This document shows positions 10,762 to 38,040 of a stretch of 64,000 nt of DNA, one piece after another (position 1 is the stretch's first letter; each line of letters opens with the position of its first letter). Below the pieces are notes generated by a model. The model did not search any database. It was not told where the DNA came from and saw nothing but the letters and a program-made list of their open reading frames with translations. The stretch covers positions 27,631 through 91,630 of the forward strand of contig CAYYRJ010000001.1 in assembly GCA_964474085.1 (NCBI GenBank), given 5' to 3'. The translations under genes and the position numbers were made by a program. This stretch comes from an uncultured Planctomycetales bacterium. GTDB lineage: Bacteria; Omnitrophota; Gorgyraeia; Zapsychrales; JANLHA01.

Positions 10762-10767
10762 ATTCAT

Positions 10768-11829: not shown

Positions 11830-11845
11830 ATAGCAAAGGTTATTG

Positions 11846-12757
11846 ATGCCTGTGATGCGTTTGATCGCGCGGCTGGATATTAAGGGGCCGAATCTCGTTA
11901 AAGGAGTTCATTTAGAAGGATTGCGCGTTTTAGGCAAGCCTGAGTCCTTTGCCGGTAAGTATTTTAAGCAAGGGATTGATGAAATTATTTATATTGATAC
12001 GGTAGCCAGCCTTTACGGACGCGATAATCTTTTGGGTATTGTTAAGCGTTCGGCCGAAAATATTTTTGTCCCGTTAACAGCGGGAGGCGGAATTCGTAGC
12101 GTCGAGGATATCCGTAATCTTTTACGGGCTGGAGCAGATAAAGTCGCGATCAACACGGCTGCTGTTTATAATCCAAAGTTTATTTTGGAGTCTTCGAGAA
12201 TGTTTGGTTCACAATGTATTGTTGTTTCTATTTGTGCCAAACAAACTAATAAGGACCAGTACGAGGCTTGGACAGATAATGCCCGGGAGCGATCAGGAAA
12301 AAATGTTTTTGACTGGGCAAGGGAAGCAGTGGATTTGGGGGCGGGAGAACTTTTGATTACCAGTATAGACCAGGAAGGAACCGCAAAAGGGTATGATATT
12401 GATTTGGTGCGGCGTATTGCCGACCAAGTACCAGTCCCCGTCATTGCCAGTGGCGGTGCAGGAAATGCCCAGCATTGTCTTGAAGTTATTGAACAAGGCC
12501 ATGCGGACGCGGTTTGTGCGGCGTCTCTTTTTCACTATTGTCAGTTAAAAGAACTACAATCGCAGGAACAATATCAAGAGGAAGGCAATGTGGAATTTAT
12601 CAAAAACAGTCGTGATACGTTGGGCTTTTTAAAAACCCGTCTTAATCCGATGAGTATTCCCGACTTGAAAACATATTTACAAAATCATGGTGTCACTTGT
12701 CGTATGGTCGAATGGTTGAAAGACGATCAAAATTCGTCGTCAGCGTGTGTTGATTAA
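11846..12757 (+). CDS. hisF: imidazole glycerol phosphate synthase cyclase subunit homologue (HisF-like, WbuZ-type)
   Basis: HisF-fold motifs (RLIARLDIKG, LTAGGGIRS, ASGGAG). ATG 11846 with AAAGG 5 nt upstream. Sits next to a HisH-like gene and an amidotransferase. Confidence 0.85.
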   Translation: MPVMRLIARLDIKGPNLVKGVHLEGLRVLGKPESFAGKYFKQGIDEIIYIDTVASLYGRDNLLGIVKRSAENIFVPLTAGGGIRSVEDIRNLLRAGADKVAINTAAVYNPKFILESSRMFGSQCIVVSICAKQTNKDQYEAWTDNARERSGKNVFDWAREAVDLGAGELLITSIDQEGTAKGYDIDLVRRIADQVPVPVIASGGAGNAQHCLEVIEQGHADAVCAASLFHYCQLKELQSQEQYQEEGNVEFIKNSRDTLGFLKTRLNPMSIPDLKTYLQNHGVTCRMVEWLKDDQNSSSACVD

Positions 12758-12765
12758 GGAATTTT

Positions 12766-13428
12766 ATGGATGCTTGCATCATTGATTATGGCTTGGGAAA
12801 CCTTTTTAATTTGCAAAAGGCCGCCCGTTTTTTAGGAGTCAAGGTTGAAGTTTCAAGCGATCCTAATAAAGTAAGAACTGCTAACAAATTAATTTTGCCC
12901 GGCGTAGGCGCGTTTGAGGATGGCATGAATAATTTGAAAAAGGCGGGTCTAGATATTGCGATCAAAGATTTTATTCAGACCGGAAAACCTTTTTTAGGGA
13001 TTTGTTTAGGGATGCAACTTTTAATGCAAGAGAGTGAAGAAAATGGTGTCTTTGAGGGGCTTGGCATCATTCCCGGGAGGGTTGTGCGTTTGCAAGAATC
13101 AGGGACACAGAAGATGTGCGTGAAAATTCCTCATGTCGGATGGAATAAAATTTTGTATCCCCAAGCGAAAAATGGACAGCCAAGAATTTGGGACGACACT
13201 ATTTTAAAAAATTTAAAAGAAGGCAGTTATTTTTATTTTGTTCATTCGTATCAGGTCATCCCTGACGATAAATCTGTCATATTGTCTGAAACGATATATG
13301 CAGATAACCGATTCTGTTCCGTTCTAAAATCAAAGAATGTGTATGCCTGCCAATTTCATCCGGAGATGAGTGCGGGGGATGGACTTAAGGGGATTGATAA
13401 TTTCTTTAAATTGCAAGGGAATGGATAA
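12766..13428 (+). CDS. hisH: class-I glutamine amidotransferase, HisH-like (WbuY-type)
   Basis: GICLGMQLL catalytic Cys motif. HVGWN and C-terminal FHPE motifs. Confidence 0.85.
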   Translation: MDACIIDYGLGNLFNLQKAARFLGVKVEVSSDPNKVRTANKLILPGVGAFEDGMNNLKKAGLDIAIKDFIQTGKPFLGICLGMQLLMQESEENGVFEGLGIIPGRVVRLQESGTQKMCVKIPHVGWNKILYPQAKNGQPRIWDDTILKNLKEGSYFYFVHSYQVIPDDKSVILSETIYADNRFCSVLKSKNVYACQFHPEMSAGDGLKGIDNFFKLQGNG

Positions 13429-13433
13429 ATCAT

Positions 13434-14654
13434 ATGCTTTTTCCTAATAAAACAATGGATCGCCAGTTGGCCAAGAGTCCTGCGAAGGTATTCTTTTGCA
13501 AAAAATGTGTTGTTTCCAATCAACGGCCCCGGATTACTTTTAATGAACAGGGGATTTGTAGTGCCTGTCAATATGCGCATCAAAAGCACAACGTCATTGA
13601 TTGGGAAGTCAGAGAAAAGATGTTTTTAGATCTTTTAGATCGGTATCGATCAAAAGACGGCAGTTATGATTGCGTGGTCCCCGGAAGCGGCGGCAAAGAC
13701 AGCAGTTATGTCGCTCATCAATTAAAATATAAGTATGGTATGCACCCATTAACCGTGACGTGGGCGCCGTTTATATATACGGATGTCGGTTGGAAGAATT
13801 ATGTTGAATTCAAGGATCATGGTTTTGATAATTTGCTCTGTTTTCCAGACGGGATTATTCACCGTAAACTAGCCAGGCTAGCGTTTGAATTATTGGGGGA
13901 TGCGTGGGAACCTTTTGCATACGGCCAGAAAGCTTACGCCTTTCATATTGCCTGCAAGTTTAAGATTCCTCTTATTTTTTATGGGGAAAGCGGGGAAGTC
14001 GAATACGGCGGTTCCACAAAAAATATTAATACTCCGCACGAAACGATCCAGGATTGGAAGGAATTTTATTATAAGGGATCCGGCATTGATGAGCTTGTGG
14101 AACATGGGCGTCAGGCAGGAATTTTTACGCCAGAGGATTTTAAGGATAATTCTTTTATGTTTTATCGGCCTCCTTCGCCCAAAGAGCTTCAAGAGGTCAA
14201 TCCGCAAATGCATTGGTTCTCGTATTATAAAAAGTGGGTGCCTCAAGAAAATTATTATTATGCGGTTGAACATACGGGCTTTGTGGCTAATTCTGATGGA
14301 CGCTCTGAGGGGACATACTCTAAATATGCTAGTTTGGACGATAAAACCGACGGATTTCATTTTTATTTAGCTTTCATTAAGTTTGGCATCGCACGGGCTA
14401 CCTCCGACGCGGCGCATGAAATCCGTGACGGCCATTTAACCCGGGAAGAGGGGATGGCATTGGTTAAACGTTATGACGGGGAATTTCCAAAGAAATATTA
14501 TAAGGAATTCTTGGAGTATTTGGGAATTGAAGATAAAGATTTTTGGGAGATTGTCGATTTTTATCGTTCTATGGTTCCTCACATCTGGACGAAGGTAAAC
14601 GGAGAGTGGAAATTATGCCACACTGTAAATAAAACTGGAGTGCATGACTGCTAA
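13434..14654 (+). CDS. N-acetyl sugar amidotransferase (PP-loop ATP pyrophosphatase, WbuX/PseA/LfnA family)
   Basis: N-terminal Cys cluster (CKKCVVSNQRP...CSAC), PP-loop SGGKDSSY. 406 aa. Confidence 0.8.
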   Translation: MLFPNKTMDRQLAKSPAKVFFCKKCVVSNQRPRITFNEQGICSACQYAHQKHNVIDWEVREKMFLDLLDRYRSKDGSYDCVVPGSGGKDSSYVAHQLKYKYGMHPLTVTWAPFIYTDVGWKNYVEFKDHGFDNLLCFPDGIIHRKLARLAFELLGDAWEPFAYGQKAYAFHIACKFKIPLIFYGESGEVEYGGSTKNINTPHETIQDWKEFYYKGSGIDELVEHGRQAGIFTPEDFKDNSFMFYRPPSPKELQEVNPQMHWFSYYKKWVPQENYYYAVEHTGFVANSDGRSEGTYSKYASLDDKTDGFHFYLAFIKFGIARATSDAAHEIRDGHLTREEGMALVKRYDGEFPKKYYKEFLEYLGIEDKDFWEIVDFYRSMVPHIWTKVNGEWKLCHTVNKTGVHDC

Positions 14655-15594
14655 AATGAAAATGTTAAAAATACTTTTCTTTGGCTTAGGTTCTATCGGC
14701 GTGCGGCATGCGCAAATCTTGCGAAAAGATTTTAAGCATGAGCTTTATGCGTTTCGCTCGGGCAAAACGTCCAAAGAAAATTTGCTTAAGGTCCCGGAGC
14801 TTTCAAGCTGGGAAAGCGTTGATCGGCTAAAGCCTGAGATTGCGTTTATTACCAACCCGACTAGTGAACATTTGTCGACAGCCCTCGAATGCGCCCAGCG
14901 TGGCATGCATCTATTTATTGAAAAGCCGCTCGCGGATTCTCTTGCCGGGGTCAGTCAGCTGATAGCGCTTTGTCATAAGAAGAAACTTTCGGCCTATGTC
15001 GCTTATTGTTTGCGCTTTCATCCGGTCATTATCAAAATCAAAGAATTGCTTAAAGACAAAAAAGCACTCCATGCCCGCGTTGTATGCTCCTCGATGCTTC
15101 ATGCGTGGCGACCGGGGTCAGATCCTAAAAAAAGCTATTCTGCCCGACGGGCATTAGGCGGGGGGGTTATCTTGGACCTTTCGCATGAATTTGATTATAT
15201 TCGTTTTTTGCTAGGTGAAATAAAGTCTATCACAGGAATCAAGGGCCGCATGGGCCATGTCACGGTTGACAGTGAAGATTTTGCGGATACTTTAGTGACT
15301 TTGGAAAATGGCGTTATTGTCAATTGTCATTTGAATTTTGCAAGTTTTCAGACAGAACGTAAAATTCAAATTGATTTCAAACAAGGATTTATCGAGGGGG
15401 ACTTGATTAATAATACGATAATTTATCAGGCCAGAGGCAAAATCCGCCACTTTAGGTTTCCCGTTGACCGCAATGCCTATTTGAAAACGCAAACGGAATA
15501 TTTCTTCAAAAATTTAAAATATCCGGACCGGATAACTAATCTTAGGGAATCACAAATCCTTTTGGAAAAGATTTTGGAGTTTAGAAATGCTTAA
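14644..15594 (+). CDS. Gfo/Idh/MocA family oxidoreductase
   Basis: ILFFGLGSIGVRH Rossmann motif and LFIEKP motif. Confidence 0.7.
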   Translation: MTAKMKMLKILFFGLGSIGVRHAQILRKDFKHELYAFRSGKTSKENLLKVPELSSWESVDRLKPEIAFITNPTSEHLSTALECAQRGMHLFIEKPLADSLAGVSQLIALCHKKKLSAYVAYCLRFHPVIIKIKELLKDKKALHARVVCSSMLHAWRPGSDPKKSYSARRALGGGVILDLSHEFDYIRFLLGEIKSITGIKGRMGHVTVDSEDFADTLVTLENGVIVNCHLNFASFQTERKIQIDFKQGFIEGDLINNTIIYQARGKIRHFRFPVDRNAYLKTQTEYFFKNLKYPDRITNLRESQILLEKILEFRNA

Positions 15595-16306
15595 AGAAAA
15601 AATTCTTTTGACTGTTTGCGCCCGCGGCGGGTCCAAGGGGGTTGCGAATAAAAATATCCGCCCTTTGTGCGGCGCGCCTTTGATTAGCCACACGATCAAG
15701 CAAGCTAAAAGCTGGGGCCGGGCGGATAAAATCATCTGCTCGACGGATTCTCTTGCGATAGCCCAAGTCGCCAAAGACTCTGGCGCAACCGTCGCTTTTA
15801 TGCGCCCTTCAAATTTGGCAACAGACAAGACAGGGAAGCTTGCGGTTTTAAAACATGCTTTAAAAACAATGGAAAAAATCGACAAGACAAAATATCCGGT
15901 TCTTGTCGACTTGGATGTTAGCGCGCCACTTAGGCAAGTTGAAGATATTGAAGGAGCGTATCAATTGTTTTTGCAAAAAAAAGCGCATTCGGTTGTCAGC
16001 GCAACCAAAGCCCGTCGTAATCCATATTTTAATATGCTCGAAGTAAAACCCAACGGTTTGGCAGCGCTGGTTAAAAAATCGTCCAAACTATTTTTAAGAC
16101 GTCAGGATGTCCCGCCCATTTATGATATGAACGCCTCGATTTATGTTTATGCTAGAGATTTTCTTTTAAACCCTAAAACCAAAACGTGTTTATCAAAAAA
16201 AACTTTCGTCTGGGAAATGCCCGAGTCGTCAGCTTTTGATATTGATTCTGAATTTGATTTTCAATTAATCGAGTTTTTAGTCAGCAAAGGGAATGTCGCG
16301 CTATGA
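15587..16306 (+). CDS. neuA: CMP-nonulosonic acid synthetase (acylneuraminate cytidylyltransferase family, NeuA/LegF-like)
   Basis: ARGGSKGVANKNIRPLCGAPLI signature of CMP-NeuAc/CMP-Kdo synthetase-like cytidylyltransferases. Confidence 0.8.
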   Translation: MLKEKILLTVCARGGSKGVANKNIRPLCGAPLISHTIKQAKSWGRADKIICSTDSLAIAQVAKDSGATVAFMRPSNLATDKTGKLAVLKHALKTMEKIDKTKYPVLVDLDVSAPLRQVEDIEGAYQLFLQKKAHSVVSATKARRNPYFNMLEVKPNGLAALVKKSSKLFLRRQDVPPIYDMNASIYVYARDFLLNPKTKTCLSKKTFVWEMPESSAFDIDSEFDFQLIEFLVSKGNVAL

Positions 16307-25535: not shown

Positions 25536-27644
25536 ATGCGGGCATTATTATCTGTATTAGAAGAGTCTGTCTTGTTCATTGAATGGCTTGATACAGGAAG
25601 CTTGTTTTTTGAAGTCATCCCGTATTTTTTGAGGCATGGAAGAAAGATATCCAAAACGATTTTTGTTTTTGATGCTTCTTTAAGTGCGTTGCGTCTAACT
25701 CGATGTGTAAGCTTTTTAATGAAATGGAAAATTGAGCTTGTTCGTTTTGAGCTCTCTGAAATCAGGGACCAGAATAATTTTTCACTGCGGCTGCGTTTGG
25801 ATTATTTTGATATAGGAGCGATCACAGATAAAATTACTGCTAATGCCGCTTTTCAAAATTATATTTGTCACTTTAAAGATCCACAACACTTAAGTCATTA
25901 TCTGGCTAAAGATTTTATCGAATTTGATTTAACGTCTTTGCAACGCCATCGCCAGATTTTGCATGCGATTACACTTGTAAATGTCAGCCGCTGGTATTTG
26001 AAAAATGGAAACTGCGGCATAAAGTTGTTTTTAAAAAAACGCTGTTGGCCTGAAATTTTGCAAGAATATGCGCGTGATTTGAATGTTGTTCTGGTTTTTG
26101 CATTGCCTTTTTACAATTTTGCTTTTGATACAAAAAGAGCTGTACGTCAGTTTTTAGCACGTTATGTTCATTGGGGTATTTTTTTCTTGCGAAACATAAA
26201 GTTTGTTTTTCGGAAAATCCATGTTCGTAATGCGGTTTGCCAAAGAGGCGATGTATCAAAAATATTGAAATATAAATTGGGTGTTGAGTATTATGGCCAT
26301 TTGAATTTAGAAAGAAAGGATGCGTTTTCAGATTTATTTTTTTATTCCCAATCTCAATTAAAGGGAGAGGAGATTACGCTTCTTTTTAGTTTACCGCAGG
26401 ATCCGCTTGATCAAAACAAATCGGTGGAATTACAAAAGCATGATATTTCAGCGTTGGTCCGTTTTCCCAGCGCTAGCCATTTGCCATTGTCTCAAGCTTC
26501 CGTGCATGACCCGTGGTCTGTCCCAGATGCGTGGCATTTGAGTGATCCTTTGCCTAATGTTCAAAGAAATGATAAGTATTTTGCTATTTTACGGAAGAAA
26601 ACAGTTACTTACAATCGTCAGCTAGGGTATTGGAAAGATCTTTTTATAAAAAACAATATCCGTCTGTATACCCACTGGTATAAATATGATGCTAAGCATA
26701 TTCCTCTCGCAGATGCTTTGAAAAGTTTAGGCGGAATATCAGCTCTATATCAGAGGGCTTATGAGTCTCATCCGATCCGGGGATTGTCCATTGTTTCGGA
26801 TGTAGTCTTTTGTTATAGTAAAAATAATTTTGCTATTGAAAAAGACAACCGGTCCGATATTGGTTATCAGGTTGTCACGGGGTTTTTGGGAGATTTTCGT
26901 TTTCCCCATTTAAAAGAGAAAGCTTTGGAGATTGCTAGGCCTTTGCGTGAAAAAGGGGTAAAACGAATTATCGCTTTTTTGGATGAAAACACGCTCGACG
27001 ACGGACGCTGGTTTGTTGGGCATGCTTTCACGCAAAGAAATTATGCTTATTTGATTGATAAAGTTCTTAAAGATCCACGGTACGGGATTATTTTTAAACC
27101 CAAAGTTTCATGGAATCTGCGTCGTCGGCTGGGAGATGTCGCAAAGCAGCTTGATGAATTGCAAAAATGTGGGCGAGGTGTTATTTTGGGAGGCGGTTGT
27201 CTGCAGAATATGCACCCGCCGGCGCTGGCGGCTCTGGCAGCTGACCTAACGATTCACGAATGTTTAAGCGCTGGCTCAGCCGGTGTTGAGGCCGCCCTTG
27301 CGGGGGCGCCAACGTTATTTTTGGACACCGAAGGCTGGCCGGTTAGTCCCTTTTATCAAGGGGGTTTAGGAAAAGTTGTATTTCAGGATTGGCCGTCTTT
27401 ATGGCAGGCCTGCGAAGATTTTTTTGAAAAGCCTGCGGCAAAAGCGTCGATCGGAAATTGTGCGCCTTTTTTAAGTGAAATAGACCCGTTTCGTGACGGA
27501 CGTGCCGCCGAGCGTATGGGGACTTATTTGAAATGGCTGCTTAACGGTTTAAACGCCGGTTTGCCGCGTCAAGAGGTGTTGGCAGATGCCGCAGAAAAGT
27601 ACACAAAACTTTGGGGTAAAGATAAGATCCATTTAAAAAACTAA
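25536..27644 (+). CDS. hypothetical protein (702 aa), possibly a GT-B-like / capsule-biosynthesis-like C-terminal domain
   Basis: Long ORF. C-terminal GGG...HP...SAG.EAAL.G.P segment loosely resembles nucleotide-sugar binding regions. Nothing diagnostic. Confidence 0.4.
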   Translation: MRALLSVLEESVLFIEWLDTGSLFFEVIPYFLRHGRKISKTIFVFDASLSALRLTRCVSFLMKWKIELVRFELSEIRDQNNFSLRLRLDYFDIGAITDKITANAAFQNYICHFKDPQHLSHYLAKDFIEFDLTSLQRHRQILHAITLVNVSRWYLKNGNCGIKLFLKKRCWPEILQEYARDLNVVLVFALPFYNFAFDTKRAVRQFLARYVHWGIFFLRNIKFVFRKIHVRNAVCQRGDVSKILKYKLGVEYYGHLNLERKDAFSDLFFYSQSQLKGEEITLLFSLPQDPLDQNKSVELQKHDISALVRFPSASHLPLSQASVHDPWSVPDAWHLSDPLPNVQRNDKYFAILRKKTVTYNRQLGYWKDLFIKNNIRLYTHWYKYDAKHIPLADALKSLGGISALYQRAYESHPIRGLSIVSDVVFCYSKNNFAIEKDNRSDIGYQVVTGFLGDFRFPHLKEKALEIARPLREKGVKRIIAFLDENTLDDGRWFVGHAFTQRNYAYLIDKVLKDPRYGIIFKPKVSWNLRRRLGDVAKQLDELQKCGRGVILGGGCLQNMHPPALAALAADLTIHECLSAGSAGVEAALAGAPTLFLDTEGWPVSPFYQGGLGKVVFQDWPSLWQACEDFFEKPAAKASIGNCAPFLSEIDPFRDGRAAERMGTYLKWLLNGLNAGLPRQEVLADAAEKYTKLWGKDKIHLKN

Positions 27645-28667: not shown

Positions 28668-29413
28668 AAGGTGTTCTTTTAGCTGGTGGGAGCGCTGTAC
28701 GCCTTCGGCCATTAACGAAGGTGACCAACAAACATCTGCTGCCGGTTTACAAAAAACCGATGATTTATTATCCGTTGGAAACTTTGCTTAAGGCGGGGAT
28801 TAAAGACATTTTAATCGTCACCGGCGGAGAGCATGTGGGCGATTTTTTTCAGCTGCTTGGCTCAGGCAAGGAATGGGGAGCGCATTTTAGTTATGAAATT
28901 CAAGAAGGAAATACCGGCACCGCGGCGGCTTTGCTTTTGGCCGAGGACTTTGTTGGCGATCAAGCTTTTATGGCTATTTTAGGTGATAATGTGGTTTGCG
29001 AAGATGTCGCTCTCTTTGTCGCGGACTTTAAGCGGCAAGAGCAAAAGTTTAAGGCCAAAATTTTGATCGCTAAGGTCAAGGACCCCCAGAAGTATGGTGT
29101 TATTGAATTTGACGGAAAACAGATCAAGAATATCGTCGAAAAACCGCAGCATCCGGTTTCCCAATACGTGAATACTGGTCTGTGGATGTTTTTGCCTGAG
29201 GTGTTTTCGCTTTTAAAAAATCTCAAAAAAAGTCCGCGCGGCGAATATGAAGTGACCGATGTTCTTTCGCATTATGCCCGAGAAAAAGTTTTGTCCTATG
29301 CGATTCTCAGGGGCCCATGGACGGATGCGGGCAGTTTTGAATCGCTCTACAATGCTACGGTTTTGATGAAAAAGCTTGAAGATAAACTATCAAAAAAATA
29401 TGAAGTCCGTTAA
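28664..29413 (+). CDS. sugar-1-phosphate nucleotidyltransferase (short RfbA/RmlA-like thymidylyltransferase)
   Basis: GVLLAGGSAVRLRPLTKVTNKHLLPV signature. ATG 28664 overlapping the rfbB stop (ATGA). Confidence 0.75.
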   Translation: MKGVLLAGGSAVRLRPLTKVTNKHLLPVYKKPMIYYPLETLLKAGIKDILIVTGGEHVGDFFQLLGSGKEWGAHFSYEIQEGNTGTAAALLLAEDFVGDQAFMAILGDNVVCEDVALFVADFKRQEQKFKAKILIAKVKDPQKYGVIEFDGKQIKNIVEKPQHPVSQYVNTGLWMFLPEVFSLLKNLKKSPRGEYEVTDVLSHYAREKVLSYAILRGPWTDAGSFESLYNATVLMKKLEDKLSKKYEVR

Positions 29414-30251
29414 AATTCTTGTCACTGGCGCCAATGGTTTTGTCGGTCAGGCGCTTTGTCGACGGTTAATGGCTCTTAAATACGAAGTTTATGGTTTGGA
29501 TCGCAATCAACCCTTCATGGCTGGTTTTGCAGATTTTTATTGTCAAGACATCACAAAACCTTTTGATCTTAAAGAAAACTTTCATTTTGTTTTTCACTGT
29601 GCGGCCCATAATGTTACGCATGTGGGAAGTCAGGATGCGGATCTGTACCATCGGGTCAATGTTGTGGGGACCGAAAATATTTTAAAGGCCGTCAAGACGG
29701 ATCATTTTGTTTTCTTGTCGACGGCAAAGGTCTATCTTGCCCAAGGAAAACCTCTCGATGAAGACTGTCCGGTTTTGCCTTTGCAGAAATACGAAAAAAG
29801 TAAGCTTGCCGCCGAACAGATTTGTTTTCAGCGCTTAGACGAACGCAGTTTAATTATTTTTCGCTGTGTCAATATTGTCGGTTTGGGTCAACCTGATAAA
29901 GCGGTTATTCCGGTTCTTTTCAAAAACGCTTATGTCGGTGAACCGCTTGATATTTTTGCCCCGCGCGGATCAGTTTTGCAATTTTTATTTGTTGAAGACG
30001 CGGTTGATGCGTTTGTGAAGGTGATTGAAAAAGGACATTTGTCGGGTGTTTATAATCTTGCTAGTCAAGAGCATATTCGGTTAGACCAATTGGCAGAAAT
30101 GATTAAGGCCATGTGCCGATCTAACAGTGAAATTCATTTTGCCGATGAAAGCGTCCCGGAGTTTTCGCAAGTGCTTTGTGCTAAGGCCCAAAACGCTTTA
30201 GGCTGGAAAGCCAAGACTTCGGTCAGAGAAATTTTAGAAAGTTATGGATAA
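29400..30251 (+). CDS. NAD(P)-dependent epimerase/reductase (dTDP-4-dehydro-6-deoxyhexose reductase-like)
   Basis: ILVTGANGFVGQAL Rossmann motif, YEKSK catalytic motif. ATG 29400 inside the track ORF 29376. Confidence 0.65.
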   Translation: MKSVKILVTGANGFVGQALCRRLMALKYEVYGLDRNQPFMAGFADFYCQDITKPFDLKENFHFVFHCAAHNVTHVGSQDADLYHRVNVVGTENILKAVKTDHFVFLSTAKVYLAQGKPLDEDCPVLPLQKYEKSKLAAEQICFQRLDERSLIIFRCVNIVGLGQPDKAVIPVLFKNAYVGEPLDIFAPRGSVLQFLFVEDAVDAFVKVIEKGHLSGVYNLASQEHIRLDQLAEMIKAMCRSNSEIHFADESVPEFSQVLCAKAQNALGWKAKTSVREILESYG

Positions 30252-30315
30252 CTGCCAAGGTGTTTTATCTGAGAATTATCGGTTATTAGGGTTTTTTGTA
30301 GCTTTAAAAGTAAAT

Positions 30316-30344
30316 TTGCATATCCCAGCCTTAAATGGTAAATA
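30316..30344 (+). promoter_or_regulatory. candidate sigma70-type promoter (TTGCAT-N17-TAAATA) for the J-like/Hsp70/kinase module
   Basis: Hexamers with 17-bp spacing in the 140-bp AT-rich gap upstream of the ATG at 30392. Confidence 0.3.
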
Positions 30345-30391
30345 TATAGATATACTTTAATGGGTTTATAGCCGTAGGGGAGACGTAAGAG

Positions 30392-32575
30392 ATGAATCTA
30401 TATCAAAATAATGCGTTTAGAGTTTTAGGGCTTTTGACCAATGCGACGACGGCCGAAATTGTCGCGCGTGCCAACGAAATCAAGGTCAAAAAGTCGGTAA
30501 ATTTTGACGGCGGCTACCAGTATGACTTTCCGTGGTTAGGCGTTCTTGATCGCAGTGAGGAAAATATTGCCAGCGCCCTTCAGCGGCTCGAAGACCCTGT
30601 CCGGCGGATTAAGCAGGAACTTTCCTGGTTTTGGCTGCAGTCAGACGCTGACCGTCAGGCCCTTAAAGCATTGTCAGAGCAGCAGTTAAAAAACGCTTTT
30701 GCCATTTGGCTTAAAGAGAGCGGTTTGACTGAAAGCAATCTCTGCGAAAAAGAAATTTCGCCGGCAACGACCCCGGAGGCTTTAGTTGCTTTGCATAATC
30801 TTTTTGTCCTTTTTCAATCGACTCTTTTACGCAATGAAATTAATGCCGGCCAAGGTGAGGCTTTTGTCCTTTTGGGGAATGATACGAATTCCCAGGAGAA
30901 TTGGGCTATTGCTTTAAGAGTTTTTAATTTTTTGCATACCAATGAAAAGTTTTGGGAATTGGTCAAGAAGCGCATCGACGCTATGCAGGACCGGCGCGTA
31001 CAAAATATTTCGATGGAAGAGATTAAAGAAAGCGCGCTTAATAATGCTCTTTCAGGTCATTTTTTTCTCATGACTAAAGCGTTGGGCAACAAAGATTTAC
31101 CGATGTTAGATAAGCATATCGAAATCCTTGAAAACGCCAATATGCCGGTTGACCTTTATAAGTCAGGTTTAAATTTGGTTCTCAACACGCGCATTGAGAG
31201 CATCAATGCGCTTTGTGATGAATTTGTCCGCGAAAGAAAAGTCGCTGAAGACAAAGGCGACGGGTCGCTTTATAAAAGCCTTTTCTACAAATATCGGGAT
31301 AGCGCTAAACCGTTGATTGACGACTGTAATATCGTTGACCGCAAGGGGATGACGGATTTTGGCGTTTCGCGCGAAAAATTTGCCAAGTCGTTTCAGCAAT
31401 TGTCTTGGAAGCTTAATAAAAGCGGGGATGCTCTGGGTGCATTGGAAAGCATGAATGAAGCGTACAAGAATTTATACTCGGACGCTTTAAAAATGGAATG
31501 CGAAAAAGACGCAGAACGCATCATTAAAGATGCTATTGAGCAATACAGTGACGATGCCACCAAGTTGATTGCCCCGGCAAACGGCAAAGCCCCGCTTGAT
31601 CAGGTTTTAAATATCAAAGAGCAATATCTTAATCAGGTCAAATCGGTGTTTTCTACCGGCGAAGTTTTTATGACCGATAAACTCGAAGGGTTGCTTCGCG
31701 AGCTTGTCGCCAAGGAGCTTCAGCTGATTTCTGTCGAGGTGCATGACAAATATCAAGCGTACGAGCATGCAGACGAAATTATTAAAGAAGCGATGGATTG
31801 GGCAGACCAGGCTAACAATGACGCGTTTAAAAAAGAGCTGGAAGCCGTCAAAAGAGATTGGTTGGAAGGGATTGAAACACGAACCACAAAGCCTCGTATT
31901 ATTATCGAGGAGTCACGACAAAAACCGGTATTTGCATGGGCTGTGGGGATGGCCCTTATTGTCGCGGCGATCTTTTCGGTCGTTGTTGCGATACAGGTAT
32001 CATCCAAAACGCCGCTTCCACCGTCGACAGTGACCGCTAAAACATCAGCCTCGCAAGAGGAGCCGATGAAGTCTTCATCGCAAAAGATTGTTTTACCCTC
32101 AAGTCCGTCGACGAGTGCGCCATCAATGGCGATAAAGGCCGCTGCTGCTGTTATTGCCGTCGCCCCGGCTGTTTTGCCGTCGCAGGCACAAGCTCAAAGC
32201 GCTCGTGAAAATCCTTTGCCTGTCGTTGTTGAAATGCCTCTGTCTGTGCAAGACGAAACTCTGATTGCCGAGGCTGCAGAGGTCAAATCCCAAATTTCCG
32301 CCCACAAGGATAAGATCAAAAGCATGGAGACTGAGCTTGAGATGCTTAGGCGGGAAAATGAGGTCCGTCAGGCCTCGATTGACCGGCTCGACAATAAGAT
32401 CGGTACCAACCCTGACAGCGTTGAATATAATTTTTGGGTCAATGAGCATAATGAGCTAGTCCGTGAACAAAATCAGGCTATCGAAGTCTCAAAAGAAAAG
32501 TATCGACAATACCAAGAAGAGTTCAAACGTCAGCAAGAGATGATCATGTCCTATAACGAACGTTTTGCACGATAA
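30392..32575 (+). CDS. membrane-anchored J-like domain protein with a long coiled-coil region and one TM helix
   Basis: N-terminus NAFRVLGLL...AEIVARANEI...ALQRLEDPVRRIKQEL aligns to J-domain helices II and IV, but there is no HPD tripeptide. TM helix VFAWAVGMALIVAAIFSVVVAIQV near residue 515. Pro/Ser/Ala-rich linker and a C-terminal heptad coiled coil. Good RBS. Confidence 0.6.
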   Translation: MNLYQNNAFRVLGLLTNATTAEIVARANEIKVKKSVNFDGGYQYDFPWLGVLDRSEENIASALQRLEDPVRRIKQELSWFWLQSDADRQALKALSEQQLKNAFAIWLKESGLTESNLCEKEISPATTPEALVALHNLFVLFQSTLLRNEINAGQGEAFVLLGNDTNSQENWAIALRVFNFLHTNEKFWELVKKRIDAMQDRRVQNISMEEIKESALNNALSGHFFLMTKALGNKDLPMLDKHIEILENANMPVDLYKSGLNLVLNTRIESINALCDEFVRERKVAEDKGDGSLYKSLFYKYRDSAKPLIDDCNIVDRKGMTDFGVSREKFAKSFQQLSWKLNKSGDALGALESMNEAYKNLYSDALKMECEKDAERIIKDAIEQYSDDATKLIAPANGKAPLDQVLNIKEQYLNQVKSVFSTGEVFMTDKLEGLLRELVAKELQLISVEVHDKYQAYEHADEIIKEAMDWADQANNDAFKKELEAVKRDWLEGIETRTTKPRIIIEESRQKPVFAWAVGMALIVAAIFSVVVAIQVSSKTPLPPSTVTAKTSASQEEPMKSSSQKIVLPSSPSTSAPSMAIKAAAAVIAVAPAVLPSQAQAQSARENPLPVVVEMPLSVQDETLIAEAAEVKSQISAHKDKIKSMETELEMLRRENEVRQASIDRLDNKIGTNPDSVEYNFWVNEHNELVREQNQAIEVSKEKYRQYQEEFKRQQEMIMSYNERFAR

Positions 32576-32606
32576 CATCGATTCGGATAATTCAAGTAGC
32601 TAATCT

Positions 32607-32987
32607 ATGGGTGAAAACGATTCTGAGTATCAGGATTTTGTTGTCGAGATCGCCATTGAATTTTGGCGTTTAGAAAAACGCTTTGGCAAGGCAGGCTCTT
32701 TTTTATCTGCAGAAGAACGACAGCTGTTTGCGGACCAAATGCAAAGAATGCGCCGTGTTCTTGAAAAATACGAGATAGAAATTCGCGATCCCAAAGGCGA
32801 AATCTATATGGATGGCCGCAGCCTAAAAGCGATTTATATCGAAGAAGTTTCCGATTTCCCCGCCGGTGAGTGCCGCATTATTGAAACTGTTAAACCTTGT
32901 GTTTGCTATAAAGGCTGTGTTATTTTTTCAGGTGAAGTTATTGTAGGTCAAGGCAAGACTCCTAAGCCTAACAAGGTCAGCCCATGA
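32607..32987 (+). CDS. small protein, possibly a GrpE-like nucleotide-exchange-factor remnant (helical N-terminus plus beta C-terminus)
   Basis: 126 aa. C-terminal ...CYKGCVIFSGEVIVGQ resembles the GrpE C-terminal beta segment (KGY..RV.RPA.V.V). Its stop overlaps the Hsp70 start (ATGA). Confidence 0.35.
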   Translation: MGENDSEYQDFVVEIAIEFWRLEKRFGKAGSFLSAEERQLFADQMQRMRRVLEKYEIEIRDPKGEIYMDGRSLKAIYIEEVSDFPAGECRIIETVKPCVCYKGCVIFSGEVIVGQGKTPKPNKVSP

Positions 32988-35488
32988 GCCGGCGAACCGT
33001 CGATTTTGGCATTGATTTAGGAACGACAAATTCGGCGATTGCTCTTATGGAGCATGGGCAGGCGAAGGTCTTAAAAAACTTTAAACAAAGTGAAATTACC
33101 CCCTCTGTTGTCCGTATTGATGAAAACGGCAGTGTGATCGTCGGGCAAAGTGCGTATAACCGTCTTTACACGGATCGTGAAAATACATTCTCTGCATTCA
33201 AGTTGCTGATGGGCACGCGCCAGACGAAGAATTTTGTCCGTTCTGGACGTATTTTAAAACCTGAAGAATTGTCCGCTGAAGTCCTCAAAGACCTTAAAGC
33301 GACGGTGCGTTTGCGTCTGCCCGATGAACCGGATATGACGGCGGCGGTGATTACGGTTCCTTGTTATTTTGAAATGACCCAATCCCAGGCGACGAGTGTG
33401 GCGGCAAAACTTGCCGGTATTGAGTTTGCGCCGCTTTTGCAGGAACCGATTGCAGCGTCGATAGCGTACGGCTTTATGGAAAAAATGCCCAAAGGCTATT
33501 GGATTGTTTATGACTTAGGTGGCGGGACTTTTGATGTGGCGCTTTTGTCGGCGAAGGATGGGCATTTGGTTGTCGTTGATCATGATGGTGACAATTATCT
33601 AGGCGGCGGCGATTTTGATTGGCGTATCGTCGAGGAAATTATTTATCCGGTCTTGCGTGAAACGTATCACTTGCCGGGTTTAGGCCGTAATTTAGAGTAT
33701 GGGTTACTTAACGCTGTTCTTAAATACGCTGCCGAAGAGGCAAAAATCAATCTTTCACAAAGTGAAAAGACCGAAATTATTGTCGAGGAAATGGAAAGCC
33801 TCAAAGACCATGACGGCAAAAGGGTGGCTCTTCGCATTGCGTTTAATCGTCAGCAGTTAAATGCAGTTATTGGAGAAGATGTTGAAAAAAGCATACGGTT
33901 GTTTCGTAACCTTTTAAAAAATCAAAAACTTGCCGCCGCAGACGTTGGGCATTTGATTCTTGTTGGAGGGCCGACACAAATTCCTTATATTCGCGAGCGT
34001 TTAAAGGATGAATTTCAGATCCCGATTAATTATTCGGTCGACCCGATGACGGTCGTCGCCAAAGGGGCGGCGATTTACGCTTCCTGCCAACTTCTTGCCC
34101 CGGGCAAGATTCCCACAGATAACAAAGCTCTCAGTGTTCAATTAAACTATGAGCCGATGACAACAGCGCTGCAGGTTAGTGTCGCCGGAAAAATTGTGAG
34201 CGCCAAAGATGCGTCATTGCCTTCGGGGATGAAACTGCAGATTAGAAGTGCTGCCGGCGACTGGCAAAGCGGGATGATAGAAATCCGTGACGGTGTTTTT
34301 TTTGCGTCGTTGTTATTGCAGCCGAATGGTGTTAATACATTTATCCTCGCTTTGTTTGATCAGAGCGCAAATCAGGTGCCTGTCGATGGGGATTCTTTTT
34401 CTATTACACAGGGCATGTCGGTGGGTGCTCCGCCTTTGGCGCGTTCGATTGGTGTTGAATTGCACGACGGGACTTTTGACAGATTGTTGGCCAAAGGCGT
34501 TTCTTTGCCGGTCAAAGCTTCTTATACATATCATGCGGCCAAGGACATTCATCCCGGGCAGGAACAAGAGGCTATTGAAATTCCTGTGCGCGAGGGAGAA
34601 AGTGACCGCTTTGATTTGAATCGGCATTTGGGGACTTTGGTTATTCGCGGGACAGATATAGGGCGCAAAATTCCTGTTAACGCCGACGTGGAAGTCACGA
34701 TCTTTGTCGATCAGTCGCGCAGCGTTTCGGCCGAGGCGTTTATCCCTGTGTTGGACCAGAAATTTTCAATGAAAATCCCGAATATGACCTCGCCCTTGCC
34801 TGAGAGCAAGGATTTTCCGTTGATCCTTGAGCGTCAAGAAAAGCGTTGGAAAGAAATTCAACAGAAGGCCGGGAGTTTAAAAATTTCATTGGCGCAAGCG
34901 GCTGTTTTGGTCAATGGCTATTTTACAGAAATCAATCGTGAAATTAAAGCCGTCAGCGGCTTAGACCCGATTGTCATTGAAAAAGTCGACCGGCGCCTTA
35001 AAGAATTGCAAGAGCATCTTGATGCTGCCGGCAAAATTGTGTTTTGGCCGGCGTTATTGCAGGAATATAAACAGCGTTTTGCCGATGCGATGGATACCGT
35101 CGAGAATTTTGCTGGAAATGTCCAGTACCTGGAGCGTTTGAATTTGTTGAAAAAAGATGCAGATAAAGCAGTTGCTTTAAGTGACAGCAAGCGTTTGAAT
35201 AAGGCCTTGGAAGACATCAATGATTTAAAGTGGGAAATTTTATTTCGACAAAAAGATTTTTGGATTGGAGCTTTTCAGGAGTTGCGGCAAAAAGAGCCCG
35301 AAAAATTTATAAATCCCAAGCGTGCCCATGATTTGCTTGAGGAGGGAGGGCGCGCGCTTTTGCGTCAGGATACCGAGTCGGTGCAAAGCATCACCATTGA
35401 ATTATGGAAACTGATTTCCTCAGATGAGCAAGCGCATATTACGCAGGCGGTCAATACGCGCTCTGGCATCAAAAGAAAAAAATCTTAA
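32984..35488 (+). CDS. atypical Hsp70 family chaperone (DnaK/HscC-like) with an inserted segment and an extended C-terminal helical region
   Basis: NBD motifs GIDLGTTNS, VITVPCYF, DLGGGTFD and ILVGGPTQIP. An SBD-beta-like block (IGVEL.DG.F..L...G..LP......Y...D.....AIEIPV.EGE....LGTLVI.G...G...V.ADVEVTIFVDQSRSVSAEAF). An extra segment of about 100 aa between the NBD and the SBD. About 230 aa of helical C-terminus. Confidence 0.85.
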   Translation: MSRRTVDFGIDLGTTNSAIALMEHGQAKVLKNFKQSEITPSVVRIDENGSVIVGQSAYNRLYTDRENTFSAFKLLMGTRQTKNFVRSGRILKPEELSAEVLKDLKATVRLRLPDEPDMTAAVITVPCYFEMTQSQATSVAAKLAGIEFAPLLQEPIAASIAYGFMEKMPKGYWIVYDLGGGTFDVALLSAKDGHLVVVDHDGDNYLGGGDFDWRIVEEIIYPVLRETYHLPGLGRNLEYGLLNAVLKYAAEEAKINLSQSEKTEIIVEEMESLKDHDGKRVALRIAFNRQQLNAVIGEDVEKSIRLFRNLLKNQKLAAADVGHLILVGGPTQIPYIRERLKDEFQIPINYSVDPMTVVAKGAAIYASCQLLAPGKIPTDNKALSVQLNYEPMTTALQVSVAGKIVSAKDASLPSGMKLQIRSAAGDWQSGMIEIRDGVFFASLLLQPNGVNTFILALFDQSANQVPVDGDSFSITQGMSVGAPPLARSIGVELHDGTFDRLLAKGVSLPVKASYTYHAAKDIHPGQEQEAIEIPVREGESDRFDLNRHLGTLVIRGTDIGRKIPVNADVEVTIFVDQSRSVSAEAFIPVLDQKFSMKIPNMTSPLPESKDFPLILERQEKRWKEIQQKAGSLKISLAQAAVLVNGYFTEINREIKAVSGLDPIVIEKVDRRLKELQEHLDAAGKIVFWPALLQEYKQRFADAMDTVENFAGNVQYLERLNLLKKDADKAVALSDSKRLNKALEDINDLKWEILFRQKDFWIGAFQELRQKEPEKFINPKRAHDLLEEGGRALLRQDTESVQSITIELWKLISSDEQAHITQAVNTRSGIKRKKS

Positions 35489-35498
35489 GGTCTCATAC

Positions 35499-36386
35499 AT
35501 GTCCCGCAATTTTGAAGTTTTGCCGCAATATACCGTGATCCGCGATACCTATACCGTCGAGAACGTTTTGGGTGAAGGGGCTTTTGGTGTTGTCTATAAA
35601 GTCCGCCATAAGTTTCTTGGCATTCAGGCGCTTAAAGTTTTTCATCCCGAAAAATTGTCTGAAAAAATAGCTAGCGATTTTCTCAATGAAGCGGTCATCC
35701 TTTCTAAGATCACGCATCCGAATGTTGTGCGCGTTTTTGAAGCGAACCATTTTGATCTTCAGGGAAAAGGTGTCGCCTACGTGGCGATGGAATATGTCGC
35801 CGGCGGAACGCTTGATGCGTATATCCGTAAAAATGTCCGGCTTGAAATTAATTTGGCACTGCAAATTCAGATGATGATTTGCCGCGGTTTGGCGCACGTT
35901 CATGCTTTTAGCCCGCCTATCATTCATCGGGATGTCAAGCCACAAAATATCATGCTTGATTTGTCGTCGAAGAATTTTGTCGTTAAAGTCTCTGATTTTG
36001 GGCAGGCCCAACACGCGGACCCTTTGACAAAATTGGCCCAGTCGGCCGGGACGCTTGCCTATATGGCCCCGGAGGGTTTTTGGAATTATAAATCGCCCGC
36101 CAGTGATGTGTATTCGGCGGGAATGATTTTATACATTATGTTGACCGGAGTTGCCCCGTTTAAGATTCCGCAGAATCTTGGGGACAAGGACAGGCAAGAA
36201 GTCGAGCGGGCCATACGCAAAGCCCGCAGCACTGATCCTGAGTCTCCGTCGGTGTTCAATCCAAGGATCGATCCGAAGTTAAGTGCGATTGTCCTTAAGT
36301 CGCTCTCTTACGACGCTGCCAAGCGCTATCAGGATGCGGCAGAGTTTTTGTCGGCTTTGGAAAATTATGTTTCGCCGGATAAGTAA
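35499..36386 (+). CDS. Hanks-type serine/threonine protein kinase (cytoplasmic, kinase domain only)
   Basis: GEGAFGVVYK glycine loop, AL-K lysine, HRDVKPQNIML catalytic loop, DFG (SDFGQA), APE motif. ATG 35499. Confidence 0.85.
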   Translation: MSRNFEVLPQYTVIRDTYTVENVLGEGAFGVVYKVRHKFLGIQALKVFHPEKLSEKIASDFLNEAVILSKITHPNVVRVFEANHFDLQGKGVAYVAMEYVAGGTLDAYIRKNVRLEINLALQIQMMICRGLAHVHAFSPPIIHRDVKPQNIMLDLSSKNFVVKVSDFGQAQHADPLTKLAQSAGTLAYMAPEGFWNYKSPASDVYSAGMILYIMLTGVAPFKIPQNLGDKDRQEVERAIRKARSTDPESPSVFNPRIDPKLSAIVLKSLSYDAAKRYQDAAEFLSALENYVSPDK

Positions 36387-36409
36387 TCTATTTAGAAAGG
36401 AATTTTTAC

Positions 36410-36754
36410 GTGAACAAAATCATATGTTTGGTTGTTAAAACCGGCCCTTTAAAAGGCCATAAATATTTTGTGAAAGCGGATTGTCCTGTTCTAATCGGGC
36501 GTGGCGAAGAAGCCAATATCCGAATCGATTATGACAAGTTTTGTTCGCGCAGCCATGCGGTGGTTTACTGGGAAAATGATGCCTGTTGCATCAAGGATTT
36601 AAACAGTACCAACGGGACGCATGTCAACAAAGTGCGGATTTTGGGAAATGTGCGTTTGGAAAATAAAAACATCTTGAGCTTTGGCTCAACAGAGGTTGTG
36701 GTTTTTATTTTAGACCACATGAAGGACGCAAAATCATTGATGGACCTTGATTAG
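36410..36754 (+). CDS. FHA domain-containing protein
   Basis: 114 aa. LIGRGEEANIRI....SRSHAV......C.I.DLNSTNGTHVN matches the FHA core (G-R...S-xx-H...NGT). GTG start with AGAAAGGAA RBS. Confidence 0.8.
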   Translation: MNKIICLVVKTGPLKGHKYFVKADCPVLIGRGEEANIRIDYDKFCSRSHAVVYWENDACCIKDLNSTNGTHVNKVRILGNVRLENKNILSFGSTEVVVFILDHMKDAKSLMDLD

Positions 36755-36776
36755 TATAGATGAAGTCTGCGTTGAT

Positions 36777-37901
36777 ATGACAAAAACAAAGATCCTGATC
36801 TGTGGAACGCTCCCGCCGCCGAATTTTGGGCACAGCATGCTTTATAAAGCGCTGATGGAATCCCGTTTTGCCCAAGAGTTTGATATTGTTTTTTTTAACA
36901 TAAAATTTTGGTCGTATGAACAGCACCATAAGGTTACAGCCGCAAAACTTTTTAAATTCGTCCAATATTATTTTCAATTTATCACGTTAATACTTACGAA
37001 ACGGCCGCAGTATGTTTTGTATGCGATCAGTTTTGACAAGATGCCGTTTTTGAAGGATTTTGTTTTTTGCATGACCGCAGAGATTTTGGGTTGTAAAGTT
37101 GTTTTGCATGATATGGGCCAGTATGTGCGTGAGCTTTATGATTCCTCGTCGATGTTTTTCCGCAGCCTGATGCGTTTTATGCTTAAAAGAATGACAGCAA
37201 GCCTTGTCCTAGGGGAATTGACGCGTAAAGTTTACGAGGGGCTTATGCCGAGCGATCGCGTTTATGCGATCCCTGCGGCGACCGCGGATTCTGCAAATTC
37301 TATTTTTCCAGTTGAAGATCGATGGCCCGGCGAAAAAATCAGGGTGCTCTTTTTTTCGTTTTTGCAAAAGTCCAAAGGCATTTGGGTCGCGCTGGAAGCG
37401 ATGCCAAAGGTCATTGCCCAAAATCCCAATGTTTATTTTACTTTTGCCGGCCCCGCCGAGTCGCAGGAGTTTGTTAGGCAAATGAATGATTTTATTGTCC
37501 GCAATCACCTAGAAAAGCATTTTGAATATGTTGGTTATGTCGGTGATGAAGAAAAACGAAGTGAATATTTTCGCAACTGTGATATCTATATCTTCCCGAC
37601 GCTGCGCGATGTTTTTGGGTTAGTCCTTTTGCATGCGATGGCAGAAGGCCGTCCGGTCATCGCTTCTTATGAGGGTGCAATCCCTGAAATTGTCGACGAT
37701 GGCCAAACAGGTTTTCTTTTCCAAAAATCCGATGCTGCGGCTTTGGCAGAAAAAATATTGCTTCTTGCACGCGACCGCCAAGCTCGTGCTATGATGGGCA
37801 AAAATGGGCGGATCAAATATGAGCGGCTTTATACGCTGGATGCGTATGCACAGCGGATGATTGATTTTTTTTCGTCTTTAGATAAACTTAGTAGATATTA
37901 A
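36777..37901 (+). CDS. family 4 (GT-B) glycosyltransferase
   Basis: C-terminal EX7E region (FPTLRDVFGLVLLHAMAEGRPVIASYEGAIPEIVDDGQTGFLF). ATG 36777. The track start, 36747, is TTG. Confidence 0.75.
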   Translation: MTKTKILICGTLPPPNFGHSMLYKALMESRFAQEFDIVFFNIKFWSYEQHHKVTAAKLFKFVQYYFQFITLILTKRPQYVLYAISFDKMPFLKDFVFCMTAEILGCKVVLHDMGQYVRELYDSSSMFFRSLMRFMLKRMTASLVLGELTRKVYEGLMPSDRVYAIPAATADSANSIFPVEDRWPGEKIRVLFFSFLQKSKGIWVALEAMPKVIAQNPNVYFTFAGPAESQEFVRQMNDFIVRNHLEKHFEYVGYVGDEEKRSEYFRNCDIYIFPTLRDVFGLVLLHAMAEGRPVIASYEGAIPEIVDDGQTGFLFQKSDAAALAEKILLLARDRQARAMMGKNGRIKYERLYTLDAYAQRMIDFFSSLDKLSRY

Positions 37902-38040
37902 CCCGGCTTTTGCATTAGCCTCGCTCCTGCGAGGCCAAGCAAAAGCCGCCCAAAGGGCCGCATGTCTCGACACCGTCGAGACGTGCGGGGTTAATCCTTG
38001 CGGTAAACCGCGACCACAGGGAGTCCCTGTGGGACAACCG
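37902..38040 (+). other. GC-rich multi-hairpin intergenic region (candidate structured RNA or protein-binding region)
   Basis: Nested stems GGCTTTTGC[GCCTCGC-TCCT-GCGAGGC]GCAAAAGCC, CCGCA[GTCTCGAC-ACC-GTCGAGAC]GTGCGG, GCGG-TAAA-CCGC and CCACAGGGA-GT-CCCTGTGG. No U-tract follows. Local GC is far above the surrounding sequence. Confidence 0.3.

Follow-up and report, generated by a model that had tools for sequence, protein, structure and literature searches.

What does a J-domain-like protein that lacks the His-Pro-Asp (HPD) tripeptide do beside the gene of an Hsp70? The question is raised by a 64,000-nucleotide (nt) stretch of DNA, hereafter the window, from an uncultured Planctomycetales bacterium placed by GTDB in the Omnitrophota (assembly GCA_964474085.1, contig CAYYRJ010000001.1, positions 27,631 to 91,630). 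The open reading frame (ORF) at 30392-32575 is a real gene, and metagenome bins of Candidatus Omnitrophota encode full-length homologues that are 55-94% identical to its 727-amino-acid (aa) product. Its N-terminal residues are MNLYQNNAFRVLGLLTNATTAEIVARANEIKVKKSVNFDGGYQYDFPWLGVLDRSEENIASALQRLEDPVRRIKQELSWFW, the opening also being given as MNLYQNNAFRVLGL... We found that aa 1-83 are a genuine, very divergent remote homologue of the J-domain. In our judgement this diverged domain probably heads a single-pass membrane protein that is the dedicated co-chaperone or adaptor of an Hsp70, within a self-contained, horizontally mobile cassette of J-like, GrpE-like, Hsp70 and kinase genes.

30392..32575, forward strand: gene of the J-like membrane protein, 727 aa (J-like domain, helical region, transmembrane segment, linker, coiled coil)
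30392..30640, forward strand: core of the J-like domain, aa 1-83 (structure model, Foldseek, hhalign and PDB profile search)
30518..30526, forward strand: HPD-equivalent tripeptide Q43-Y44-D45 (hhalign register and residue counts over 167 domains)

A search of 1.84 billion cluster representatives with a profile of the domain showed that the family numbers no fewer than 2,151 representatives (E ≤ 1e-3), of which 331 reach E ≤ 1e-10. The J-like domain occupies the N-terminal position in 156 of 167 cases and is the most conserved portion of the protein across phyla. Members carry the label 'hypothetical protein' in the source databases, as seen in a word-indexed protein search and a look-up of cluster members; a scan of viral contigs found no relatives. 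Profile A4, built from 64 sequences drawn from the best 150 matches with no pair more than 50% identical, was compared by hhalign with a reference J-domain alignment of eight sequences, all confirmed as PF00226 matches. The two aligned with a probability of 94.8% (P = 5e-8), columns 7-82 falling on DnaJ residues 5-72. The score was 42.8, while the best of 30 column-shuffled controls reached 13.4 and the alignment in reverse 6.8, and both families have the same motif register, ILG(L/V), A..EI and A...L.DP..R. When all 177,635 PDB sequences were searched with A4 by hmmsearch, the matches were mostly J-domain chains, for example mKIAA0962 (best E, 4e-4), DNAJB9 (6e-4), Thermus thermophilus DnaJ2 (2e-3) and E. 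coli DnaJ (9e-3), with Sec63 and ERdj5 also among them.

Structure prediction gave the same picture. The AlphaFold2 (AF2) model of aa 1-112, with a predicted local distance difference test score (pLDDT) of 80.6, has helices at residues 8-11 (I), 20-35 (II), 56-67 (III) and 69-78 (IV), a long loop at 36-55 between helices II and III, and the family-specific WFW motif at aa 79-81. The best Foldseek matches of the model in the PDB are J-domains (dnj-12, DNAJB12, Sis1, Ydj1, Tid1, CbpA and the DnaJ in 5NRO), with probabilities reaching 0.99 and target-normalised template modelling (TM) scores of 0.5-0.67, and its best matches in the viral BFVD library are DnaJ or J-domain proteins. The four-helix J fold with its hairpin of helix II, loop and helix III is present in the model and in its Foldseek matches. 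An earlier note on this DNA had described a J-domain-like N-terminus without HPD, and the profile, PDB-wide and fold evidence bears this description out. The two blocks that the note had aligned reappear in the hhalign alignment, FRVLGL opposite YYEILGV and ALQRLEDPVRR opposite AYEVLSDPEKR, but its assignment of them to helices II and IV was slightly off: FRVLGL closes helix I, whereas helices III-IV are covered by the second block. The note would have abandoned its claim had a profile alignment shown no similarity to J-domains, and hhalign found that similarity; the comparison with PF00226 that it proposed gave no Pfam match, whereas homology to J-domains is present at the profile-profile level, and the structure comparison that it proposed returned J-domains as the top matches.

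Where the HPD should stand, the hhalign register pairs Y42-Q43-Y44-D45 with Y32-H33-P34-D35 of DnaJ. Just ahead of this position, about eight inserted residues lengthen the loop between helices II and III. HPD is absent from every part of 165 full-length family proteins and from all 167 domain copies; the His and Pro are lost, while the Asp (D45) is kept in 156 of the 167. The family consensus at the site is [YF]-[ED]-[TYF]-D-[FL]-P-[FW]-[LMI]-G, and the loop containing D45 is under strong purifying selection. In the homologue alignment YQNNAFR, LGL, R26, E29, Y42, D45, W48, G50, DRS, QRLEDP, R72, E76 and WFW are invariant. The basic helix II residues by which DnaJ is positioned on DnaK (R22, K26 and R27; PMC8215388) correspond to V24, N28 and E29, the last of which is conserved. 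The tripeptide lies inside the loop that the earlier note had quoted as devoid of HPD and reads QYD there, so that the note's claim holds and the retention of the Asp refines it. Neither an HPD elsewhere in the window protein, which would have spoken against the note, nor one in any of 164 relatives was found.

The gene stands first in a four-gene cassette on one strand, followed by a 126-aa ORF, a gene of an 834-aa Hsp70 and a Ser/Thr kinase gene.

32607..32987, forward strand: 126-aa mini-GrpE, helical hairpin plus beta domain (AF2, Foldseek and weak GrpE sequence matches)
32984..35488, forward strand: 834-aa non-canonical Hsp70 (PF00012 nucleotide-binding domain at E = 4e-84, PDB alignments, residue mapping to E. 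coli DnaK)
35424..36386, forward strand: Ser/Thr protein kinase (Pkinase at E = 2e-48; HRD, DFG and APE motifs)

This order is kept in 11 related Omnitrophota-type loci with enough DNA, while the flanking genes vary. The Hsp70 gene lies two or three genes downstream of the J-like gene in 12 of 12 Omnitrophota-type loci, in the verrucomicrobial locus L017 (J-like, small-protein and Hsp70 genes on a contig that ends soon past the last) and on a plasmid of Haliscomenobacter hydrossis. Six of seven distant relatives also have an adjacent Hsp70 gene, the seventh contig being too short upstream to judge. The core in these six runs from the J-like gene through a small-protein gene to the gene of an Hsp70 of 836-848 aa, with an additional gene after the J-like one in some. 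Downstream of this core there is usually a kinase or kinase-AAA+ fusion, and an FHA protein is often encoded as well. Within the roughly 19 cassettes examined, as distinct from the rest of the genomes, no HPD-bearing J-protein is encoded.

The partner Hsp70 comprises a nucleotide-binding domain (NBD) at aa 8-373, an insert of about 110 residues rich in beta structure, a segment resembling the beta part of the substrate-binding domain (SBD) at about aa 487-620, and an extended helical C-terminus of about 250 aa. This architecture resembles the layout of NBD, SBD and HEAT repeats described for CnuD of the CoCoNuT systems. In E. coli DnaK numbering, the catalytic residues D8, K70, E171, D194, T199 and D201 are invariant in 13 cassette Hsp70s, whose ATPase is active-looking and, to judge from these residues, catalytically intact. 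DnaJ and DnaK meet through H33 and the L391 backbone, P34 on P419, and D35 with R167 and Q378, and basic residues of the J-domain meet E206, D211, E217 and D477 of DnaK (PMC8215388). In the cassette Hsp70s the residue at R167 is never Arg (Pro, Glu, Tyr, Val, Ala or Asp instead), Q378 is replaced by Tyr or Phe (Val in one), N170 by Gln (Ser in one) and D481 by Ser (Gln in one), D211 is deleted, and E206 and E217 are non-acidic in most. In place of the DVLLLD linker stands the insert of about 110 residues, ahead of the SBD-beta-like segment. The altered positions are ones that in DnaK touch HPD or belong to its allosteric network (PMC8215388). With the DnaK contact residues changed in the Hsp70 and HPD lost from the J-like domain, both sides of the canonical interface have been rewritten.

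The small protein between the J-like protein and the Hsp70 is predicted from its modelled fold to be the nucleotide exchange factor of the cassette Hsp70. Its AF2 model, computed from a shallower alignment, has a pLDDT of 84.4 and the paired helices and C-terminal beta domain of GrpE. The top 11 Foldseek matches in the PDB are all GrpE (E = 3e-4 to 0.03), with the best superposition on Geobacillus kaustophilus GrpE (4ani; TM-score 0.62, root-mean-square deviation 3.4 Å). The protein falls below the cut-off of the GrpE sequence models (NCBIfam GrpE, E = 0.03, 14 bits versus 201); Pfam GrpE matched 4 of 14 homologues (best E, 1e-3), and hhalign against residues 128-196 of E. coli GrpE gave E = 2e-3 at a probability of 14%. 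Searched with a hidden Markov model of this mini-GrpE, all further cassettes that were checked proved to have the module immediately before the Hsp70, in some of them as the C-terminal domain of a larger protein (about 300 aa).

In its listed form, the kinase ORF shares 65 nt with the end of the Hsp70 gene. Alignments with homologues begin at aa 17-32, so translation probably starts at M26 (35499), 11 nt past the Hsp70 stop. The presence of the HRD, DFG and APE motifs suggests an active kinase.

Beyond its core, the J-like protein carries three further features.

30641..30727, forward strand: two extra conserved helices past the core, aa 85-95 and 99-110 (AF2 model and alignment)
31922..31996, forward strand: predicted transmembrane helix, about aa 511-535, FAWAVGMALIVAAIFSVVVAIQV (hydropathy scan)
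32279..32572, forward strand: C-terminal coiled-coil region, about aa 630-727 (alignment and weak matches to coiled-coil families)

The extra helices contain the conserved residues D87, A90, L94, A102 and W106, and canonical J-domains are without them. A conserved helical region, from about aa 113 to 505, separates the J-like domain from the transmembrane segment and showed no known family in Pfam or in the PDB profile search. At least one transmembrane segment is predicted by hydropathy in 94 of 124 long family members. A linker rich in Pro, Ser and Ala joins this segment to the coiled coil, which terminates in ...SYNERFAR; distant family members have a similar Y-N tail. The PDB profile search with the full-length protein produced just weak matches of coiled-coil or transmembrane type. 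Scans with Pfam, NCBIfam, PADLOC and PHROGs produced just weak coiled-coil matches and a weak match to PF25690 (gp49 of mycobacteriophages L5 and D29), which covers window positions 30446-30649 (aa 19-86) at E = 0.013-0.016 and 16 bits versus a cut-off of 27. The latter could be noise, or gp49 could contain a J-like segment or be a distant J-like relative. A search of 29000-38000 against Rfam gave no matches, and a scan for promoters and terminators gave a signal no better than in shuffled sequence.

The family varies around this plan. Members of a shorter subfamily (600-630 aa) share about 30% identity with the window protein overall and about 55% across the first 110 residues. In the shorter Omnitrophota subfamily (L009-L016; P0013-P0018) a zinc-ribbon-like insert (CPxC...CxxCG; columns 160-200, approximately, of alignment A1) follows soon after the J-like domain; the window protein is without it. 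Tandem HPD-less J-like domains occur in P0039 (aa 14-96 and 426-510), P0055 (aa 1-112 and 492-596) and P0120, with a similar helical region after each copy, and some members have a Cys-rich CxCC module or a CFI-box C-terminus.

If the J-like protein is a dedicated co-chaperone or adaptor of the cassette Hsp70, its N-terminal domain would dock on the cognate Hsp70 through a remodelled, co-evolved interface in which D45 and the conserved aromatic/Gly loop stand in for the HPD-R167 contact. Docking would bring the Hsp70 to a membrane scaffold and couple its ATPase cycle, the mini-GrpE would reset that cycle, and the kinase would transmit or regulate the output. Because the partner Hsp70 has lost the residues that read HPD, the loss of HPD does not by itself imply a loss of function. 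HscA and HscC have no exchange factor and release nucleotide fast by themselves (PMC8215388). The cassettes, unlike HscA and HscC, retain a GrpE-like gene, which suggests a regulated cycle that needs a trigger. Given the dedicated exchange factor and the strong conservation of the loop, we lean towards the J-like domain being a functional ATPase trigger that works through a non-HPD contact rather than a tether only.

Several results weigh against this interpretation. PF00226 matched neither the window protein nor 12 relatives at E ≤ 10, and the Pfam DnaJ gathering score was not reached, one distant relative attaining 16.9 bits versus a cut-off of 27.8. The E-values of the Foldseek matches are weak (0.02-3), with TM-scores of about 0.4-0.67. 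In one close relative, the Omnitrophota metagenome-assembled genome HK-STAS-OMNI-1 (L003, 12181-12243), about 60 bp separate the J-like and Hsp70 genes, which leaves no room for a small ORF, and no mini-GrpE homologue was detected; the exchange factor may be dispensable there, lost or misassembled. Cassette Hsp70s that are paired with a TPR protein, and not with a J-like one, are also without R167. We therefore rejected the loss of R167 as a trait specific to Hsp70s with J-like partners and regard it as a feature of the Hsp70 clade, which is no proof of pairwise co-evolution. Finally, replacing the H of HPD by Q or the D by N abolishes ATPase stimulation in every tested system (PMC8215388), so a stimulatory role would need another mechanism.

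This last point keeps a passive tether alive as a reading. As in Pam16/Tim16, which the earlier note had brought up, the J-like domain might bind the Hsp70 without stimulating it and serve as a membrane tether or a negative regulator. HPD is missing from 167 of 167 domains, its mutation ends stimulation in all systems tested (PMC8215388), the basic helix II residues R22, K26 and R27 of DnaJ are V24, N28 and E29 here, and the protein has a predicted membrane anchor with an Hsp70 encoded nearby, all of which this reading would accommodate. We nevertheless think it unlikely. No HPD-bearing J-domain that could form a heterodimer is encoded in any examined cassette, which together with the retained GrpE-like factor makes a Pam16-like inhibitor less likely; no Pfam match to Pam16 was obtained at E ≤ 10; D45 and its loop are strongly conserved; and the canonical rule may not apply to a partner Hsp70 that is itself without the HPD-reading residues.

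More improbable still is a relic of the J fold that has no contact with the Hsp70 and serves in oligomerisation or in binding the kinase or a client, the gene linkage reflecting a common pathway. Such a relic would fit the altered interface residues on both sides, the tandem duplications and the replacement of the J-like protein by a TPR/DUF6585 protein in some cassettes, but it leaves unexplained why conservation across phyla is strongest in the N-terminal domain and why Hsp70 and GrpE homologues are kept alongside, recapitulating the triad of DnaK, DnaJ and GrpE. That the domain is not a J-domain homologue at all, and that a small helical domain resembles one by chance or convergence, seems barely tenable to us: PF00226 is silent, the narrow profile A2 matched no J-domain in the PDB and the Foldseek E-values exceed 0.01, yet the broader A4 matches mostly J-domain chains there, the hhalign score lies far above its shuffles (42.8 versus at most 13.4), the two families have the motif register in common, and the gene partners, an Hsp70 and a GrpE-like protein, are those that homology predicts.

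A polysaccharide-biosynthesis locus surrounds the cassette both in the window and in the nearest relatives. The window cassette stands amid a long run of sugar-nucleotide and glycosyltransferase genes on the same strand, from about position 1 to 55000, with RmlA/RmlB-like, WecG, Bac_transf and GT4 genes; a 702-aa ORF just upstream (window 25536-27644) has no Pfam match. On plasmid pHALHY02 of H. hydrossis (NC_015512.1, 1-45000; L030/L031) the cassette occupies 8539-16064, and the order is J-like gene, mini-GrpE fusion, Hsp70, kinase-AAA+ and TerB. Here the flanks hold SIR2/WD40 genes and a BREX-1 system with McrBC-like, COR and macro-domain genes; a DUF4433 gene is also found in this defence island. 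RefSeq names the J-like protein of this plasmid 'CFI-box-CTERM domain-containing protein' and the mini-GrpE fusion 'septum formation initiator'. Other copies lie beside HTH and DNA methylase genes (L019) or HTH_17, PLD and protease genes (L025). Variants without the J-like gene are the cargo of a Tn7-like element on a plasmid of Shewanella xiamenensis (L033) and are carried by the conjugative plasmid pSDM007 of Pseudomonas hygromyciniae (L032); their partners are a TPR/DUF6585 protein, or AAA+, peptidoglycan-binding and DUF6585 proteins. These variants suggest that the adaptor is swapped modularly among cassettes. PADLOC-DB v2 gave no match at E ≤ 1 for the J-like, mini-GrpE and Hsp70 proteins. 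Modularity, mobility and neighbourhoods together indicate that the cassette is most likely a conflict, defence or envelope-stress/signalling module.

Hsp70 types listed for bacteria in reviews are DnaK, HscA and HscC only (PMC8215388), and other DnaK derivates have been called unexplored dark matter in which control by J-proteins was probably lost (PMC13580251). About 99% of J-domains have HPD, and large censuses drop sequences without it (PMC13580251; PMC10410713); one of these (PMC10410713) kept only sequences with a complete HPD and drew on annotation that already existed. We found no description of the cassette in the literature searched, whose coverage is incomplete, so that an earlier description is possible. 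What we rate as new is that the triad of Hsp70, J and exchange factor has its interface rewritten and comes with a kinase. More tentatively, and with the odds somewhat against it, the cassettes could represent a widespread, unrecognised fourth type of bacterial Hsp70 whose ATPase is triggered or gated without HPD by the J-like domain, in a membrane-associated system of immunity or stress signalling that plasmids, transposons and defence islands carry. HPD counts as the feature that defines J-domains and that they cannot do without. One clade of DnaK derivates keeps its own J-like and GrpE-like partners with the interface rewritten on both sides, and thereby offers a natural test of whether HPD and R167 are needed to drive an Hsp70. 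The J-domain superfamily gains thousands of unannotated proteins, and a candidate conflict or signalling system that combines an Hsp70 with a kinase becomes accessible in two cultured hosts, H. hydrossis and P. hygromyciniae.

Among known systems, canonical DnaJ/Hsp40 proteins (PF00226) have the same helical-hairpin fold and the same motifs, ..ILG[LV].., A..EI in helix II and A...L.DP..R in helices III-IV, and dnaK-dnaJ-grpE operons likewise place a J-type gene beside Hsp70 and GrpE-like genes. The J-like domain differs from them in that HPD has become [EDQ]-x-D, the loop is about eight residues longer with its own Y..DFP[WF]LG motif, the basic patch of helix II is lost, two helices and the WFW motif are added, and the sequence falls below the Pfam threshold. 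The partner Hsp70 also differs, being without R167, Q378, D481 and the DVLLLD linker.

A second comparison is with E. coli HscC, which is stimulated by DjlC. There, too, the gene of a specialised non-DnaK Hsp70 stands beside that of its own membrane-anchored co-chaperone, and in DjlB and DjlC the J-type domain is N-terminal with a transmembrane segment C-terminal to it (PMC8215388). DjlB and DjlC have been grouped with the HPE-variant J-domains (PMC10410713), whereas both the H and the P are lost here. HscC, at 550-580 aa, has no exchange factor; the cassette Hsp70 of about 840 aa has an insert, a mini-GrpE and a linked kinase.

Pam16/Tim16 and HPD-less J-like domains such as that of DNAJB13 have in common with our protein a J fold without HPD and an Hsp70 at a membrane. 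Pam16 works by forming a heterodimer with the HPD-bearing Pam18, on a canonical Hsp70. In contrast, the cassette contains no HPD partner, its Hsp70 is remodelled, and the J-like protein has no sequence match to the Pam16 family.

The conflict systems built around GAP1-N2 GTPases, with HSP70, GrpE and DnaJ-fused proteins (PMC7159879), resemble the cassettes in placing Hsp70 homologues in defence-type neighbourhoods, and some Hsp70s of the GAP1-N2 and CoCoNuT systems occur with GrpE or DnaJ and some with kinases. We rejected membership in either group, as the window cassette contains neither a GAP1-N2 GTPase nor McrB. An HPD-less J-like family is not described in PMC7159879 or PMC11090510, and the systems presented there are built around GTPases. 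CnuD of type III CoCoNuT systems (PMC11090510) combines an Hsp70 NBD and SBD with a C-terminus of helical repeats, a layout like that of the cassette Hsp70; its ATPase motifs are degenerate, whereas the cassette Hsp70 has kept all of its catalytic residues.

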